A DNA stretch of 64,000 bases. Source: a virus. A program made the position numbers and the translations under genes. Where the stretch lies: IMG/VR virus record IMGVR_UViG_3300030106_006091, positions 9,839 to 73,838 of that record. One strand, 5' to 3'. Numbering within the stretch: the stretch's first letter is position 1; the number at the start of each line of letters is the position of its first letter. This document shows, piece after piece, positions 5,294 through 35,525 of this stretch. The notes under the pieces were generated by a model. The model was given only the letters and a program-made list of their open reading frames with translations. It made no database searches and was not told the DNA's origin.

Positions 5294-5431
5294 ATGGCAA
5301 AGAAGCAAACACCATTCGACATGTACATCAAAAAAAATGTATCAAGACCCGGAGTCCATGGTAAAACTAAATCGTCTAAGCACAAGTCTTCTAAGCTTTA
5401 CAAGAAGGCATATCGCGGCCAAGGCCGTTAG
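5294..5431 (+). CDS. Small basic protein (45 aa, not in the ORF track)
   Basis: MAKKQTPFDMYIKKNVSRPGVHGKTKSSKHKSSKLYKKAYRGQGR*, directly after the promoter box; Lys-rich. Confidence 0.7.
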   Translation: MAKKQTPFDMYIKKNVSRPGVHGKTKSSKHKSSKLYKKAYRGQGR

Positions 5432-7826
5432 TCTAATAGCACTACTACTAGTATCGCTAACTGCTCTATCCCAGAGCTGGATAAACCTTGAACTGCAAGC
5501 AGATCAGTATGGGGGTGAAACAACTTGGGAGATAGTACAGGGCGATAGTGTATTTGCATCAGGGGGACCTTACGGGTCTTTCGAGTACGTACAACAACTC
5601 ATACCCCTACCACCAGGTGAGTACAACCTAGTTGTCAATGATGCATTTGGGGATGGCATCTGTTGTGACTTCGGGGAGGGCTGGTTTGGTATAGAGAACA
5701 CATGTAGCGTATCACAATCAGTGTACGACTTTGCAACTGCGCAAGTAGTAGTGTATTTTGATTTGCTACCATGCCCCCCACCTATAGCTGGATGCAGTGA
5801 TGAGACAGCAAACAACTACAACCCAGATGCATACTTCGATGATACCTGCATCTACGATGTAACATTTAGACTAGACCTCAACGGACCACACCCACCACAG
5901 ATAGTTACCCCAGAAGTAAACTCTAACGTAAACGGGTACTGCGGGTCGTGTTGGGCCATGAGTGATGACGATCAAGATGGGGTGTGGGAGATAACAGCCC
6001 CCATGCCAGAAGGGGAACATCTTTGGAAGTTCTCTGCAGACAATTGGGAGATACAGGAATTGCCAGTAGGCGTTTCTGAGTCTCCCTGTTTTTTGTTCGA
6101 TGAGTTCGGGTATGTCAACAGAACCATAAACGTACAGGGTAACATGACACTCCCACCATTGTGTTGGGAAAGCTGTTTACCATGCGGGGCCGTACCAGGC
6201 TGCACAAATCCAAACGCCAGCAACTGGAGTCCATGGGCAAACTTTGACAACGGGTCATGCACAGGCCTTGGTGCTGACTGTCAACCGTGGGAGACAGAGA
6301 TTACCACTACACTTATCGCAGACAACTACCCCGAAGAAACAAACCTGAACGTATACAATATTACATCTGACGAAGAACTGCTAGATATATCTGTTGGGGA
6401 CATACCACAGCTGGTCATTGGTGTGCCACTTGTGTTCTCTACATGTGCTACAGTTGGGGATGTTGTTGAGGTAGAGATAGCTGACAGCTACGGTGACGGA
6501 CTTGGGGCTTCTCAGTGGGGCGGACAGGACGGAGATCTGTTTGTTGTGGCATGCGGAGATACTCTATGGGACCTGCCTGAAGCTGACTTTGGGTACAGCA
6601 CTTTCTCAGAGTTTACCACACCTACATGTGTCACTGTCGAAGACGTAGTAGGATGTGGAGACCCAGACTACCTAGAGTACAACCCAGATGCGACCATACA
6701 ACTAGATGTGCTGTGTGAAACTCTTGCAGTATACGGTTGCACAGATACACTGTACTTCAACTACGACTCTCTTGCCAATGCAGAAGACGCAATAGATTCC
6801 TGCTTCTATACGCTCACTATTACAGACGGTATCGGAGATGGGTGGTTTGGGAGCTGGCTTGGTGTCTACCAGAACGGGTGGGCATCACCACAATACAAGA
6901 TGGGGCCAAACGATGGGACAGAAGAAGTGTTCGATATATACCTGTCAGCTGAGGAGGAGATAGAGATGTTCTTCTTCACAACCCCGCAGTCACAGAACCA
7001 AGTCAACCAGTGCGGGTTCACGCTTGTTGGCCCGACTGGGGACACACTGATAGATATCTCACAGTGGAGCATTACCCCGTTCCCCAACACATACAGTGTA
7101 ACTCCATACTGCGGCAATACATGTATACCATTTGCATACGGATGCACTGATGAGACTGCACAGAACTATGATGCATACGCAAACACAGAGAATGGTAGCT
7201 GCTACTACAACGCTGGGTGCACACAAGCAGGCTATCTAGAATATTACACCCAAGGGTACGAAGCTGATTACGACGACGGATCATGTGAGACATTGGCTGT
7301 CTTTGGGTGCACAGATGAAGAAGCACTCAACTACGAGCCAGAGGCGAACGTTGACAACAACAGTTGTATAGCCGTAGTCGAGGGCTGCATGGACCCAGAC
7401 GCATATAACTACAACGAAGACGCCAATACTTCTACGCAGTGTTTGTATGATGCAGGATGCATTACAGGACCAGGACAACCCTACTGGGCAAACGACAACT
7501 GCTACACGTGGGTTATAGAAGTTGACCCATACTGCTGTGAGGTGGGGTGGGATGCACCATGTATGGAGCTATATCAATACTGCGGCAATCAAACATCTAG
7601 CGTAGACGTAGCCGTTCAGTCTTTGCTGCACTTCTTCCCTAATCCTACAGACGGGGAGATACGTGTGCAAGCACCCATAGGCACAGTCATTACAATTGTG
7701 GATGCTTCAGGCAGAAAGATAATAGAGACAGAAGACACTAGAATACATCTCCCATCTGCGGGTGTGTATGTAATCATGGCCAACTACAAAGGCCGAATCA
7801 AAAAAGAAACAGTAGTAAGGCAATGA
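5358..7826 (+). CDS. Secreted Cys-repeat protein with type IX secretion (Por) C-terminal sorting domain
   Basis: Signal peptide (AVSLIALLLVSLTALSQ), 8 GCxD..NY..A....C repeats, an E-set/CBM48-like stretch (MSDDDQDGVWEITAPMPEGEHLWKF), and C-terminal FFPNPT...IVDASGRKII...LPSAGVYVI...KETVVRQ typical of a T9SS type A CTD. Start is uncertain (5337 or 5358). Confidence 0.85.
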   Translation: MVKLNRLSTSLLSFTRRHIAAKAVSLIALLLVSLTALSQSWINLELQADQYGGETTWEIVQGDSVFASGGPYGSFEYVQQLIPLPPGEYNLVVNDAFGDGICCDFGEGWFGIENTCSVSQSVYDFATAQVVVYFDLLPCPPPIAGCSDETANNYNPDAYFDDTCIYDVTFRLDLNGPHPPQIVTPEVNSNVNGYCGSCWAMSDDDQDGVWEITAPMPEGEHLWKFSADNWEIQELPVGVSESPCFLFDEFGYVNRTINVQGNMTLPPLCWESCLPCGAVPGCTNPNASNWSPWANFDNGSCTGLGADCQPWETEITTTLIADNYPEETNLNVYNITSDEELLDISVGDIPQLVIGVPLVFSTCATVGDVVEVEIADSYGDGLGASQWGGQDGDLFVVACGDTLWDLPEADFGYSTFSEFTTPTCVTVEDVVGCGDPDYLEYNPDATIQLDVLCETLAVYGCTDTLYFNYDSLANAEDAIDSCFYTLTITDGIGDGWFGSWLGVYQNGWASPQYKMGPNDGTEEVFDIYLSAEEEIEMFFFTTPQSQNQVNQCGFTLVGPTGDTLIDISQWSITPFPNTYSVTPYCGNTCIPFAYGCTDETAQNYDAYANTENGSCYYNAGCTQAGYLEYYTQGYEADYDDGSCETLAVFGCTDEEALNYEPEANVDNNSCIAVVEGCMDPDAYNYNEDANTSTQCLYDAGCITGPGQPYWANDNCYTWVIEVDPYCCEVGWDAPCMELYQYCGNQTSSVDVAVQSLLHFFPNPTDGEIRVQAPIGTVITIVDASGRKIIETEDTRIHLPSAGVYVIMANYKGRIKKETVVRQ

Positions 7827-8866
7827 GATATTTAATCACACTTGTGCTTGTAGCACTTACCTTTAACACAAATGCCCAAGATTTCTATAACAAAGTTCTT
7901 AGAAGAGCGACGTTCTATGCGGCGGCTAATGGAGGCAACTCGGTATCTGATCTTAACACATACTCTCTCTCTTCCGGATCACTTACGACCGGGACTGTTG
8001 AAACGCCCTTTGACTATTCTATTACGCTTGGGGTCCGCAAAATTGCGCGTTTTGGCTATGAGAACAGAGCTAATGTGTTTTACAATGGCACTGAAAACAC
8101 GTACGGGGACGCAGCAACCGTTGGAAAGCGAAACGGATTCGAGTTTCTCGCAGAGGCAGATTGGAGAAGACAGCAAGGAAGAAACTTCCTAGACCAAGAC
8201 TACTTCGTACGTTACGTAGCAGACCACTGGATAGTCAAAGCAGAGTACCTGGCAGACGGGTTTGCTGACATACGATACTTCGAAGGGTCACAAAGACTGC
8301 GTACTCAGATTGGGAAGAAGCTGTCACTCAACGTTGGGATAGTCCAACGCATATCTGAGCCGTACGGGTACGACCCCCTGACAGAGCTCATGCTAGACGA
8401 CAACCAAATACACTATACGTCGTTAGCATTAGAAGAAGGATATACAATAGATGTTAATACAGGTGAGTTTTTTGACCCAAACGGGGAGCTTGTAGCGAAC
8501 GACCCGGCTGTCTGGGAACAGGTGGTGATACCACAGGTGCTCACCGACTACGTAGCCAGAAAACGCTCTGAACTCCCCAGCCAGTGGGTGCACTCAGCAG
8601 TTATAGGCTACGACTTCTACCACTACGACAAAGACTTTTGGCTACACTCATGGGGTAACTTGATGCCCTTTCACCTAGACACAGATGATAACTATTCTTA
8701 CCACCGCTTTGTTAATAGCTCACAGTGGGTAGATTATTCTGTAGGACTTATATTTGGAGTAAAGTTCAACAAAAGCTTTGGGGTATTCCTAGAGGGCAAG
8801 TACAATAGGTACTGGGATAGAGAGTGGCATGACTTCTCCGTTGGGTTGAACTACATACTTATTTAA
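7823..8866 (+). CDS. Putative outer-membrane beta-barrel protein
   Basis: Signal peptide ending NTNAQ, aromatic-rich alternating strands, C-terminal FSVGLNYILI resembling a beta-signal. Confidence 0.7.
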   Translation: MRYLITLVLVALTFNTNAQDFYNKVLRRATFYAAANGGNSVSDLNTYSLSSGSLTTGTVETPFDYSITLGVRKIARFGYENRANVFYNGTENTYGDAATVGKRNGFEFLAEADWRRQQGRNFLDQDYFVRYVADHWIVKAEYLADGFADIRYFEGSQRLRTQIGKKLSLNVGIVQRISEPYGYDPLTELMLDDNQIHYTSLALEEGYTIDVNTGEFFDPNGELVANDPAVWEQVVIPQVLTDYVARKRSELPSQWVHSAVIGYDFYHYDKDFWLHSWGNLMPFHLDTDDNYSYHRFVNSSQWVDYSVGLIFGVKFNKSFGVFLEGKYNRYWDREWHDFSVGLNYILI

Positions 8867-8867
8867 A

Positions 8868-9152
8868 ATGGCACAGCAAATAGGAGAGGACACTAAGGTA
8901 ACTCTAGACCTGAAGACTATAGGAATGGCTGTTGCAGGTATTGGGACAATCGTAGCAATGTGGTTTGCATTGCAGGCGGACATAGCAGAAGCAAAGGAAC
9001 TCCCAGAGCCAGCAGCCCCCGAGATTACACGCATGGAGTTTGACATGAAAGACCAACTGGTCAGACAAACTATCATGAGTACACAAGAAGATGTGACTGA
9101 GATCAAACAAGACATCAAGCGCATCGAAGAAAAAATAGACCAACTAAAATGA
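8868..9152 (+). CDS. Single-TM protein with C-terminal coiled coil
   Basis: TM segment IGMAVAGIGTIVAMWFAL; heptad tail VTEIKQDIKRIEEKIDQLK. Confidence 0.75.
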   Translation: MAQQIGEDTKVTLDLKTIGMAVAGIGTIVAMWFALQADIAEAKELPEPAAPEITRMEFDMKDQLVRQTIMSTQEDVTEIKQDIKRIEEKIDQLK

Positions 9153-9155
9153 GAC

Positions 9156-9503
9156 ATGAGAACTGCACTAATTGCTGCACTATTCTCTGTGCTATTCTTG
9201 GCACCTGTCCCTTCAAAGCCTGATCTAGGCGGGATATGTGTTGTAGAATTTAACGCAGATTTTAACAAGCAGAATAGCGTACCCTGGATAGAGAAACTAT
9301 CAGAGTGTAACGCTGTACGGGTAAACATCTCGGCTGAGCCAGAGATGCAAATGGAACACAAGATTGTTGTTGTACCAACGATCATTGTATTCAATGAGGG
9401 CGAAGAAGTTGAACGCTTCCAAGCCAATATCATGATGACTATGGAGACCACCAAGAACGAAGTTCAAGAGGTGGTTGATGAAATTATTTTGAGCGACTTC
9501 TAA
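9156..9503 (+). CDS. Exported thioredoxin-fold protein lacking CxxC
   Basis: Signal peptide; VVEFNADFN (cf. VVDFWAxWC) and IVVVPTIIVFNEGEEVERF (cis-Pro region of the Trx fold). Confidence 0.75.
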   Translation: MRTALIAALFSVLFLAPVPSKPDLGGICVVEFNADFNKQNSVPWIEKLSECNAVRVNISAEPEMQMEHKIVVVPTIIVFNEGEEVERFQANIMMTMETTKNEVQEVVDEIILSDF

Positions 9504-9522: not shown

Positions 9523-9755
9523 GAAACCGCTTCCTAGCGACCGGCCCTGGGTAATCAAAAAGGGCCTAGACATCGGGTTACAGTAGCTGTCACCATAGGC
9601 AGTGAACGTTGTCCCCGGTAGTTTCGCAAAGTGCGTTGGTATAAAACTCGGGTGGGAACCAGGCTATAGGCTGATAGAAATGCCCCCACGTAGGCTTAAG
9701 ACGGCGAGTGGAAGTCCAACTGCTAAACACAAAAACCAAGGGGGTAAATTGTATC
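9523..9755 (+). ncRNA. Putative structured ncRNA or long structured leader before the endolysin
   Basis: About 255-nt gap in an otherwise gap-free operon, with its own promoter and several helices (CGCT/AGCG, GGCCCT/AGGGCC, AGTTT/AAACT, CGCA/TGCG, GTGGG/CCCAC). Confidence 0.45.
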
Positions 9756-9760
9756 CAGTC

Positions 9761-10180
9761 ATGAGAGAAATCAACCGCATCATCATCCACTGCTCCGCAA
9801 CGAGAGAGGGACAAGACATAGACGCAGCTACAATCAAGAAGTGGCATACCGAAGACCGAGGATGGTCGGATATCGGGTATCACTATTGTATCAAGCTTGA
9901 CGGTACTTTAGAGGCTGGAAGACCGCTCGACCGTGCAGGGGCACACGTCAAAGGACACAACTCCGATTCAATAGGTATCTGCTACATAGGGGGCGTAGAG
10001 GAAGACGGTAAGACACCGAAGGATACAATGACCCCAGCCCAGGAGCACGCAATGCGTGAGCTGATCTTCTCGCTGCGTATGGTATGGGACAAAGAGTTGA
10101 CCCTACACGGGCACAACGAATATGCCAGCAAAGCATGCCCTAGCTTCAAAGTCAGCGAAAAATTCGCAGATATCTTGTAA
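9761..10180 (+). CDS. N-acetylmuramoyl-L-alanine amidase (T7-lysozyme/Amidase_2 type endolysin)
   Basis: IIIHCSAT, WSDIGYHY, GAHVKGHNSDSIGICYIGG, HGHNEYASKACPSF. True start at MREIN (9761) rather than 9602. Confidence 0.93.
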   Translation: MREINRIIIHCSATREGQDIDAATIKKWHTEDRGWSDIGYHYCIKLDGTLEAGRPLDRAGAHVKGHNSDSIGICYIGGVEEDGKTPKDTMTPAQEHAMRELIFSLRMVWDKELTLHGHNEYASKACPSFKVSEKFADIL

Positions 10181-10184
10181 AGCA

Positions 10185-10217
10185 TTTGGTTATATAAGAC
10201 CCACTGTTATATATTTG
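10185..10217 (+). promoter_or_regulatory. Bacteroidota-type promoter (-33/-7)
   Basis: TTTG (10185-10188), 21-nt spacer, TATATTTG (10210-10217), upstream of groES. Confidence 0.7.
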
Positions 10218-10233
10218 TCATAAACCAAGCATT

Positions 10234-10512
10234 ATGGCAAGTATTAATTTCAAACCAACGCGGGACTGGGTAGTGCTCCCGATGCAACGTAAGGACAAGA
10301 CCGATAGCGGTATCGAACTTGTTGGGGGTGCAGAAAACTCACTACGTACTAACATTCTTAAGGTAATCGCTGCCGGACCACAATGTCAGATGGTCAAGGA
10401 GGGCGACACAGTTATGATTCACCCTAACTCAGAAGGTCTTGTGATCAATCTGGATGAGGGTGAGTTTGTCATGGTTAACGAATTCACTATCTGCGGTGTC
10501 ATACCGGACTGA
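10234..10512 (+). CDS. groES: Co-chaperonin GroES-like protein
   Basis: FKPTRDWVVL, KTDSGIEL mobile loop, VIAAGP, VKEGDTV. Confidence 0.88.
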   Translation: MASINFKPTRDWVVLPMQRKDKTDSGIELVGGAENSLRTNILKVIAAGPQCQMVKEGDTVMIHPNSEGLVINLDEGEFVMVNEFTICGVIPD

Positions 10513-10745
10513 TGGAAGGAAGCGTAACCATACCTATCAAAGCGTTTGATGAGTTGAGGTTGGCCAAAGAAACAGCTGACGAGAAGGAGCAGAACCTACA
10601 CAGAGCAGCTAGAGAGCTAGAAGTATTCCTGTCGTTCTTGGTGACAAGAGACAACATACAGGAGTTTCTAGATGAGTTCAACAGGCAATCCTCCACTAGC
10701 CGCATCAACATAGACGACGGGAGAGCTAAAATAGTATTCAGATGA
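10512..10745 (+). CDS. Hypothetical protein (77 aa)
   Basis: Translationally coupled ORF. Confidence 0.7.
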   Translation: MEGSVTIPIKAFDELRLAKETADEKEQNLHRAARELEVFLSFLVTRDNIQEFLDEFNRQSSTSRINIDDGRAKIVFR

Positions 10746-11065
10746 GCAGTAACATTAAGATAGAAGTGAAGACTACCTACCAGTTTCTGCAGGTGTTTAA
10801 CGGAATACTTGAGCTGACTGAGAAAGAGCTGCAGGTACTATCCAGTTTTATAGACCTGGGAGATACAGTAAACCTGTGCTCTGCAGACAACAAGAAGAAG
10901 GTAGCAGAAAACCTAGATGTAAAGGACCCAAACACCCTGAACAACTACGTAAAAAGACTGAAGGACAAGGGGGCAATCAGAAAAACAAAGAACGGGTACA
11001 AGCTATCCGGTCTGCTAAGTCTTAAGAACAATGTAACAATAACTGTAAAAGATGCCCGTGTTTGA
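10742..11065 (+). CDS. Putative winged-helix DNA-binding protein
   Basis: LTEKELQVL...KKVAENLDV..NTLNNYVKRLKDKGAI is a wHTH-like pattern. Confidence 0.65.
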   Translation: MSSNIKIEVKTTYQFLQVFNGILELTEKELQVLSSFIDLGDTVNLCSADNKKKVAENLDVKDPNTLNNYVKRLKDKGAIRKTKNGYKLSGLLSLKNNVTITVKDARV

Positions 11066-11151
11066 TGTGTTTGTCTACGATCCCTGGTACATATCAGTAA
11101 TATATAACCCAAGCGGGGCACAAGCAGTAGTAATCATACAACACTTAGAAA

Positions 11152-11517
11152 ATGGGGAAGAAGAAACCATCGATGCTGGATATGCTTAAGAACTTTGCTA
11201 AAGAGGTAAAAGACTATGCAAAGGAAGGCGCACCCAACGTTACAGAAGAGGTATACGAAAAGAGACTAGGAGAATGTGAAGCATGCGAACATCTCAGAAA
11301 AGATGTCATGAGATGTGGCAAGTGCGGATGCCTAGTGGAGCACAAAGCCAAATGGGCTACATCCAGTTGCCCAGACAAACGGTGGCTCAAAGAGGTAGTA
11401 GGGGCAAGCGGGAGAGCAATTGCTCTTAAGAAGAACGAAAGACTGGAGAAAATAAAGGCTGCCAGAAGAAAGAGAAGAGATGCAAGAAAAGGTAATTCTA
11501 CAACGTCTAGCAACTAA
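11152..11517 (+). CDS. Cys-rich putative Zn-binding protein with basic tail
   Basis: CEAC...CGKCGC...CP. Confidence 0.7.
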   Translation: MGKKKPSMLDMLKNFAKEVKDYAKEGAPNVTEEVYEKRLGECEACEHLRKDVMRCGKCGCLVEHKAKWATSSCPDKRWLKEVVGASGRAIALKKNERLEKIKAARRKRRDARKGNSTTSSN

Positions 11518-35082: not shown

Positions 35083-35525
35083 TGGGAAAGAAGAAGATAA
35101 AAGATACCGGCCTTGGCAAATGGTTGGCGGAAAAGGCACCTAGCGTACTTGGTACAGTAGGTGACCTTCTCCCTGACCAAGGGGCTCTTGGTGTCGTAAA
35201 GAATCTCTTGGACAAAGAACCAGGGATTGACCCAGCTGAGGCGAAAGCCAAGATAGATGCTGAGATAGCATTCCAGAATAACGTCACTGAGCGTTGGAAA
35301 GCGGATATGGGAAGTGACGTAAAGCTGGCTAAGCTGATACGTCCAGTCACATTGATAGCCTTGATGGGCATGTTCATGATCACTATGATCTTTGACAGCC
35401 TTGACAACTGGCCATTCAATGTAAAGGACAGCTACATAGATCTGTTGCAAGTCCTGATGTTGACTGCATTTGGTGCATACTTCGCAGGTCGTACCATAGA
35501 AAAGAGTCGCAAACCTAACACATGA
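35082..35525 (+). CDS. Putative holin (GTA 3TM-holin-like)
   Basis: RWKADM.SD..LAKLIRP, two hydrophobic helices, AYFAGRTIEK. Confidence 0.75.
   Translation: MGKKKIKDTGLGKWLAEKAPSVLGTVGDLLPDQGALGVVKNLLDKEPGIDPAEAKAKIDAEIAFQNNVTERWKADMGSDVKLAKLIRPVTLIALMGMFMITMIFDSLDNWPFNVKDSYIDLLQVLMLTAFGAYFAGRTIEKSRKPNT

Follow-up and report, generated by a model that had tools for sequence, protein, structure and literature searches.

What four tightly packed, envelope-directed genes do for a marine phage, and whether they form one device or two, is the question raised by a locus in a 64,000-nucleotide piece (the window) of the IMG/VR virus record IMGVR_UViG_3300030106_006091. The record measures 73.8 kb and has a completeness rating of 88%. 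The four genes follow one another on the + strand at positions 5358-7826 (g1, 822 residues), 7823-8866 (g2, 347 residues), 8868-9152 (g3, 94 residues) and 9156-9503 (g4, 115 residues), with intergenic spacings of -4, +1 and +3 nucleotides. g1, the hypervariable member of the block, is predicted to be an exported, cysteine-rich, multi-domain cargo of type A for a type IX secretion system (T9SS). g2 is exported and belongs to a virus-only family whose model is a 12-strand outer-membrane beta-barrel; g3 is a membrane protein with one predicted transmembrane (TM) segment; g4 is an exported protein with a thioredoxin fold lacking the CxxC motif. The reading that we favour, with a probability of about 45%, splits the block. 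g1 would be a hypervariable glycan binder brought to the cell surface by the host T9SS, and g2-g3-g4 (the trio) would span the envelope and act at lysis in a spanin-like manner.

A preliminary description of the DNA had already noted four tightly coupled genes, each with an envelope-targeting signal. Open reading frames (ORFs), hydropathy and the signals of homologs bear this out, and the g1 start at 5358 agrees with that in its closest homolog, L006. The four-gene set is not a chance assembly, because its synteny recurs in about 60 related viral contigs. The expected co-occurrence of the four genes was also found, g1 being present beside the trio in all 41 crAss-type loci with enough flanking sequence.

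We consider first the T9SS assignment of g1. Hydropathy and inspection predict a Sec signal peptide at 5358-5474 (+; about residues 1-39), with cleavage before an SW pair. By inspection, the homologs carry short classical signal peptides ending in AQ or GQ right before this conserved SW. The T9SS type A C-terminal domain (CTD) lies at 7620-7826 (+; residues 755-822), as judged from hidden Markov model (HMM) matches of the homologs and from model superposition. On its own, the window copy scores below threshold, at 20.8 bits for TIGR04183 (cut-off 23; model positions 2-71 of 72) and at 16.4 bits for Pfam PF18962 (cut-off 27). A CTD loop is shortened in the window clade. The assignment nevertheless holds, because of the 38 homologs in the alignment 37 reach E <= 0.01 on TIGR04183, the best at 1.3e-11. 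In the AlphaFold2 (AF2) model of g1 (pLDDT 67.5), residues 755-822 superpose on the CTD of RgpB with a Z score of 10.1 and a root-mean-square deviation of 1.5 A over 64 aligned residues (22% identity). The CTDs of RemA, NucA and FspA in SprA-PorV translocon structures give Z scores of 7.7-8.2, and those of PorZ and mirolase are matched as well. Judged by sequence and modelled fold, g1 thus appears to be a genuine T9SS type A cargo. The combination of Sec signal and type A CTD put forward in the preliminary description is supported by the homolog HMM matches, the CTD fold and the signal peptides; the idea that the CTD would score as a T9SS signal held for the family and failed for the window copy, which stays under both cut-offs.

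The rest of g1 points to binding rather than catalysis. Two N-terminal beta-sandwiches occupy 5475-6170 (+). In VIA-align comparisons of the AF2 model, residues 40-137 are CBM60-like (Z 7.7 over 86 residues against vCBM60), and residues 153-271 are CBM20-like (Z 8.8 over 89 residues against the CBM20 of STBD1; about 8 against CGTase starch-binding domains). These Z scores are middling, so they give a fold-level hint and not a family assignment. The body holds 39 cysteines, six disulfide modules of the GCxDxxAxNY type and three DxxGDG motifs; no catalytic domain was found in g1, and a search of PHROGs gave no match. With this modelled architecture, the body most likely binds glycans. Homologs of g1 range from 686 to 901 residues in length and from 33 to 84% in identity. 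Their median identity is 42%, against 72% for g2, 81% for g3 and 65% for g4. g1 looks like a moron-like, fast-diversifying gene facing a variable target outside the cell. At the surface it may mask receptors, promote adhesion to particles or keep progeny off debris.

A T9SS cargo calls for a host with that system. The terminase, portal and major capsid proteins of the window phage match crAss-type PHROGs. In tblastn searches the terminase is 41-44% identical to those of crAss-like phages of Bacteroides, and phages of Flavobacterium and Cellulophaga are among the matches too. By its sequence, the phage would be an uncultured marine crAss-like phage and, because terminase, portal and capsid are crAss-like, its host should belong to the Bacteroidota, the phylum with T9SS. 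The trio was found in no GenBank phage: neither at the DNA nor at the protein level did any match g1, g2, the barrel of a second clade described below (clade 2) or P0191, a distant relative of g2.

The second protein, g2, models as an integral outer-membrane beta-barrel. The model, built from an alignment with 42 homologs, has 12 strands by DSSP, a pLDDT of 71, an N-terminal signal peptide and an insert of about 70 residues between strands 7 and 8. Across the family, the final strand ends in NY-x-x-[ILF]. Structural comparison ranks 12-strand barrels of the outer membrane highest, namely EstA (Z 15.8), KdgM (15.5), NalP (15.4) and NanC (15.3), and Tsx barrels are also among the top matches. 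Signal peptide, strand count and Z scores agree with the preliminary assignment of g2 to this class. The further suggestion that g2 is a dedicated PorP-like partner of g1 is not supported, as the trio occurs without T9SS cargo in three other clades, adjoins holin and endolysin genes in many lineages, and no similarity to PorP/SprF was detected. The structural matches listed include no PorP or PorQ chain, though absence from this list does not exclude the family. PF11751 (PorP/SprF) has no match in the whole record, a weak test in that control genomes gave none either. No Pfam match was obtained for g2 at E <= 1, a profile search of PDB sequences returned nothing, and PHROGs gave no match.

The g2 family seems confined to viruses. 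Its 3504 clusters at 90% identity (434 at 50% identity) contain none with a Pfam domain, all lie on phage-size contigs, and their atlas neighbours are 100% viral. Among 185,579 species genomes there were only 5 matches, all on contigs of metagenome-assembled genomes (MAGs). These are probably phage contigs mis-binned into MAGs, because they carry taxon labels as unlikely as Nitrosopelagicus. The contigs in question (L072-L076; one 120 kb long, the other four 3.8-11.7 kb) bear the same phage block and are labelled Nitrosopelagicus, Parvibaculum, Rickettsiales and Maricaulis.

Residue conservation in g2 was examined in a deep alignment, in which the only invariants are glycines, tyrosines, one glutamate and one arginine. 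H275 is kept in at least 90% of the sequences, and H284 together with a serine and an aspartate, invariant in the crAss-type clade, is not conserved deeply. A catalytic outer-membrane enzyme resembling OMPLA, LpxR or OmpT was considered for g2 and rejected, since no catalytic set stands out in this alignment. The most conserved stretch, residues 74-102, is nearly invariant in the crAss-type clade and yet the worst modelled (pLDDT 28-45). By strand parity in the model it should face the periplasm, making it a candidate docking site.

The two small proteins of the trio would lie further inward. In g3, hydropathy gives a single TM window at residues 17-37, followed by a hinge rich in proline and a tail of 57 residues that by eye looks helical and heptad-like. 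Mean column identity in its alignment (A4) reaches 84%, and its PHROG matches are weak only. Of the TM coiled coil previously proposed for g3, the TM window and the helical heptad-like tail stand; the coiled coil itself is seen by eye only. We discarded g3 as the holin because a separate two-TM homolog of phrog_3427 is present in the same genome. This holin-like gene, at 35088-35513 (+), encodes two C-terminal TM segments and is 77% identical (tblastn) to L016:2536-2973, a gene that matches phrog_3427 at E 4.3e-20.

g4 has an N-terminal hydrophobic signal of the signal peptidase I type, without a conserved lipobox. It scores 19.7 bits on the Pfam Thioredoxin family PF00085, below the cut-off of 23.5, and its L071 homolog passes with 23.6. 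The NCBIfam thioredoxin model matches at E 6e-6, and the g4 family profile matches solved thioredoxins of the PDB at E 6e-6 over query positions 16-93; PHROGs gave no match. In all 29 aligned homologs (alignment A3), F-N-x-x-N replaces the WCGPC site; the family keeps the cis-Pro loop and has two conserved cysteines (C28, C51). Because the CxxC site reads FNxxN throughout, g4 is best described from sequence as having a thioredoxin fold and not being a thiol-disulfide oxidoreductase. The exported, CxxC-less thioredoxin fold of the preliminary description is thereby corroborated. Its proposed role as a chaperone of the Cys-rich cargo is not supported, the trio occurring in three clades without any T9SS cargo. 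Prediction of a complex between the mature forms of g2 and g4 and the tail of g3 gave a score of 0.01 in a run without controls, which is uninformative either way.

In order to see what travels with the barrel, g2 and its distant relatives were used as queries, and four g2 clades were recovered with inter-clade g2 identities of only 30-35%. Homologs of g3 and g4 accompany g2 in all four, mostly in the order g2-g3-g4 and once as g3-g4-g2. Clade 1 comprises about 65 crAss-type loci. Clade 2 has about 14 loci and a helicase 56% identical to that of the Flavobacterium myophage immuto. In clade 3, the trio lies downstream of structural genes differing from those of the other clades, and in clade 4 the genome context is again another, the trio lying 3' of small unannotated ORFs. 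The distant relatives P0191 and P0208 gave no loci among viral contigs.

The cargo does not follow the trio across these clades. g1 is restricted to the crAss-type clade, where its stop overlaps the g2 start by 4 nucleotides in 30 of 56 loci. A T9SS CTD protein was found near the trio in 2/10 loci of clade 2, 0/4 of clade 3 and 0/1 of clade 4. Clade 2 records rated 88%, 84% and 75% complete contain no PF18962 or PF13585 match, and therefore the trio can do without a phage-encoded cargo. By this comparison of loci, the block appears to be two units and not one, the g1 cargo and an autonomous g2-g3-g4 trio. The two clade 2 loci with a CTD protein, L078 and L085, encode a protein with cohesin and Por_Secre_tail domains (33.6 and 29.7 bits, cut-off 27), which lies upstream at a distance of a few genes. 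In these myovirus-type contigs it forms part of an island 5' of the trio that codes for six proteins of exported or membrane type (L078:821-5322, L085:2585-6937). The island also encodes a protein of 385-425 residues whose C-terminus resembles a second outer-membrane barrel and ends in GGKIRF. In the crAss-type locus L020, a 591-residue exported CHU_C protein of T9SS type B (57 bits) is encoded at 9701-11476 (-), convergent to g4. Some crAss-type phages thus have both type A and type B cargo beside the barrel.

The trio also moves between phages. Between the window and L043, the terminases are 21% identical and the portals not alignable, whereas g2, g3 and g4 are 65%, 79% and 60% identical. 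The block occupies at least three different genome positions: in the window it is flanked by the replication genes on one side and by the endolysin and terminase genes on the other, in L043 it stands between portal and head genes, and in L016 it follows a holin-like gene and precedes the replication genes. Because its identity is far above that of the terminases and it sits at several positions, we interpret the trio, on sequence grounds, as a horizontally exchanged cassette. The clade 3 homologs of g3 are longer, with 186-222 residues (L092:8964-9632, L094:7378-7938, L096:8470-9048 and L098:8045-8644). They carry an N-terminal domain resembling those of PilB, PilF and MshE; phmmer gives E 1.6e-7 for PilB and 0.0034 for MshE (5HTL). 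The MshE N-terminal domain type binds cyclic di-GMP.

The genes next to the trio bring in lysis. In the window clade the neighbour is an Amidase_2 gene. In L020 and L021, a DUF5675 gene takes the exact slot held by Amidase_2 in the window, and L085 likewise has DUF5675 next to the trio. DUF5675 (L020:11500-12012, L085:9557-10087) thus substitutes for the amidase or for other endolysins in sister phages, a non-orthologous replacement. Because it fills the same slot as these enzymes, DUF5675 is probably an endolysin family; it shows faint similarity to the L,D-transpeptidase-like Tlde1 domain. Other loci carry beside the trio an 84-residue two-TM protein with a phrog_33083-like enzyme (L071), Peptidase_M15_3 (L086, L088) or a phrog_3427 holin (L016, L096, L101). 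In L107, and in L108 with its g3-g4-g2 order, a phrog_894 endolysin and a phrog_3427 holin come immediately after g2. When only these listed gene types are counted, 20/41 loci of clade 1, 8/10 of clade 2, 3/4 of clade 3 and 1/1 of clade 4 (32/56 in total) have a known lysis gene no more than 3.5 kb from the trio, with loci within a clade being related and not independent. The junctions between trio and lysis gene are of at least seven different kinds.

These observations can be combined into the following picture. g1 would reach the periplasm by Sec. Its type A CTD would then direct it via the SprA/PorV translocon of the host onto the cell surface or into the medium, where its CBM-like sandwiches and disulfide-rich linkers would bind glycans on or around the infected cell. 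g3 would be anchored in the inner membrane with its helix in the periplasm, g4 would be a redox-dead thioredoxin-fold protein of the periplasm, and g2 would form a 12-strand barrel in the outer membrane. Together they would connect both membranes and, after holin and endolysin, disrupt the outer membrane as the last step of lysis, the job of spanins. The trio has export signals, recognisable folds, conserved synteny, mobility and proximity to lysis genes; we infer from there that its three proteins bind one another and act in lysis. More tentatively, the trio might be a lysis device of a new class, used by phages on Bacteroidota hosts and passed between unrelated marine phages as a mobile cassette. 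In such a device the barrel would replace the o-spanin lipoprotein and the redox-dead thioredoxin would serve as adaptor, with some lineages regulated through the PilB/MshE-N-like domain of g3.

Several points weigh against a lytic function of the trio. Proximity to lysis genes is the sole functional evidence, and about half of the crAss-type loci have no known lysis gene nearby. DUF5675 lies at least 12 kb from the trio in L043 and L039, and the amidase is about 28 kb away in L012. Morons often adjoin lysis cassettes, which makes proximity alone weak evidence. o-Spanins are defined as lipoproteins and g2 is a barrel; the periplasmic tail of g3, at only 57 residues, is too short to cross the periplasm alone. 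Spanins usually evolve fast, and the trio is very well conserved, unusually so for a lysis protein. The cytoplasmic PilB/MshE-N-like domain of clade 3 g3 suggests, by sequence similarity, a regulatory input into the trio that a plain spanin would not need. Finally, in crAss-type phages g1 always stands beside the trio, with the 4-nucleotide overlap in 30/56 loci, and the other T9SS cargos near it (L078, L085, L020) may mean a T9SS-related role.

This last point leads to a reading in which the four genes form one surface-display operon, with g1 as cargo, g2 as its dedicated anchor or shuttle, g4 as periplasmic chaperone and g3 as organiser, serving masking, adhesion or superinfection exclusion. 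Analogues for such a barrel exist: PorP/SprF serve type B cargo, and PorQ holds PorZ by its CTD. The presence of g1 in 41/41 crAss-type loci and its frequent overlap with g2 would fit, as would the non-homologous cargos in L078 and L085 (cohesin-Por_Secre_tail) and L020 (CHU_C), and high conservation of the trio would suit binding to a conserved host machine. However, most clade 2 loci and all loci of clades 3 and 4 lack a CTD protein, trio-bearing records rated 75-88% complete have no PF18962/PF13585 match, and g2 has no PorP/SprF match, its nearest folds being 12-strand autotransporter and KdgM-type barrels. Besides, we know of no type A cargo that needs a private barrel. We consider a common display function rather unlikely. 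Alternatively, the trio alone could protect the envelope or take over the host, by superinfection exclusion or by interfering with T9SS and gliding, BAM or Tol-Pal, and lysis genes would be near only through moron clustering. Temperate phages do carry outer-membrane proteins next to lysis genes, lambda Bor and Lom for example. The trio behaves like a mobile accessory, 60-80% identical between phages with 21% terminase identity and found at several genome positions, and it is common to unrelated phage types that probably share hosts; the strong purifying selection on it (84% mean column identity in g3) suggests a conserved host target. The variety of its neighbours speaks against this: five endolysin families and one holin family adjoin the trio in four clades, beyond what a moron hot spot would lead one to expect, and in L108 it lies directly against an endolysin-holin pair. 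No similarity to known exclusion proteins was seen, PADLOC not having been searched. Such a device is, in our view, unlikely.

The proximity of holin and endolysin genes would equally suit a controller of lysis timing, in which g3 is a one-TM holin of the T4 T type or its partner, g4 an antiholin-like ligand comparable to T4 RI, and g2 a sensor or anchor. By inspection, g3 may have the topology of T4 T (N-terminus in, one TM segment, periplasmic C-terminal domain), and the gene directly behind it codes for a small exported protein, g4. Regulatory input is also suggested by the PilB-like domain of clade 3 g3 (E 1.6e-7). Yet the same genomes have a separate two-TM holin-like gene, at 35088-35513 in the window and beside the trio in L016, L096, L107 and L108. 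No sequence similarity links g3 or g4 to T4 T or RI, and it is hard to see why a timer should require a barrel in the outer membrane, so that we hold this reading to be quite unlikely. It is most improbable that the four proteins belong to the tail or fibres of the virion, with a CTD-like domain that is merely an Ig-like decoration. g1-like folds do weakly match phage tail and fibre proteins in BFVD, and the L043 block sits between portal and head genes. But the position of the block shifts independently of the structural genes, g2 models as an integral outer-membrane barrel, and all four proteins have a Sec signal or TM anchor. Virions of tailed phages are assembled in the cytoplasm. Because of the export signals on all four, a virion role is unlikely, in line with the preliminary view of the block as a cell-surface module.

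Comparison with lambda Rz/Rz1 makes plain what would be spanin-like about the trio. In both cases a one-TM protein with a helical tail, possibly of type II in g3, is encoded beside a small exported protein; the trio genes are tightly packed and often stand by an endolysin or holin gene, and their predicted sites are inner membrane, periplasm and outer membrane. Unlike Rz/Rz1, the trio has a barrel in place of a lipoprotein, three genes instead of two and no lipobox; it is highly conserved and has no sequence similarity to them. The periplasmic part of g3 is much shorter than that of Rz, and its tail is short next to those of known i-spanins. On the coding strand, no lipobox o-spanin candidate was found anywhere in the 88%-complete record. 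With PorP, SprF and PorQ, g2 shares a barrel gene that adjoins a T9SS cargo gene and is translationally coupled to it; it departs from them in having no PF11751 match, a cargo of type A and not type B, and a place in many cargo-less phages. Lambda Lom, an 8-strand barrel, and Bor, a lipoprotein encoded next to Rz/Rz1, are lysogenic-conversion genes with cellular homologs. They too are phage outer-membrane proteins at or near the lysis region, whereas g2, a barrel of 12 strands whose family is virus-only, occurs in phages that are apparently lytic and never without g3 and g4.

Phage-encoded T9SS cargo as such is already known, and to call the use of host T9SS by a lytic phage unusual, as the preliminary description did, was an overstatement (PMC7468147; PMC6949934). 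Cryophage has three variable T9SS cargo genes, in a passage that calls this a unique occurrence (Bellas et al. 2020, PMC7468147), and gut crAss-like cluster 2 phages encode T9SS sorting domains in ORFs situated upstream of their head genes (de Jonge et al. 2019, PMC6949934). From the passages concerned, the likeness is that a phage of Bacteroidota encodes type A CTD proteins, which are among its most variable genes. The Cryophage cargos described there are enzymes or PA14 proteins, unlike g1, which has only CBM-like sandwiches and Cys-rich linkers. The T9SS passages of the two papers make no mention of an adjacent trio of barrel, TM-helix protein and dead thioredoxin, and no description of the trio was found in the literature. 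Through it the outer membrane may be broken in a manner not yet described. Marine flavophage isolates are mostly without a recognised spanin (PMC8776804), and canonical spanins are rarely found in phages of Bacteroidota. For the step in which such phages cross the outer membrane, the trio offers a concrete, testable candidate. If the reading of g1 is correct, a hypervariable glycan binder placed by T9SS would change the sticking of virocells to particles or the presentation of receptors, and its display would bear on host range and carbon export. Flavobacteriia rank as main degraders of the carbon from algal blooms, and the sea is rich in crAss-like phages.

In the window, the gene just 3' of g4 is the Amidase_2 endolysin (N-acetylmuramoyl-L-alanine amidase; 9602-10180, +; Pfam E 1.1e-13, phrog_822 E 1.1e-55), whose true start is uncertain. 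Directly 3' of it, at 10234-10512, a GroES-like co-chaperonin is encoded (Cpn10 E 8.3e-6, phrog_3188 E 9.7e-11), and a GroES-like gene after the endolysin is kept in sister phages. Scanning for sigma-70 promoters, a search that does not cover promoters of the Bacteroidota type, gave 4 sites in comparison with 6.9 in shuffled sequences; for terminators it gave 6 against 4.0, and neither result counts as an excess.

No RNA run was listed as containing the locus, and the metatranscriptome of a DNA-positive sample covered no part of g1, g2 or g4. In a marine metatranscriptome (run X21) whose sample is also DNA-positive, a 191-nucleotide contig is identical to 9808-9994 within the amidase gene, with DNA carry-over possible; neither this contig nor a 32-nucleotide piece of a relative's g3 in the same metatranscriptome says anything on expression. 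DNA near-identical to the window stretch is contained in marine metagenome runs from eight studies dated 2014-2025.

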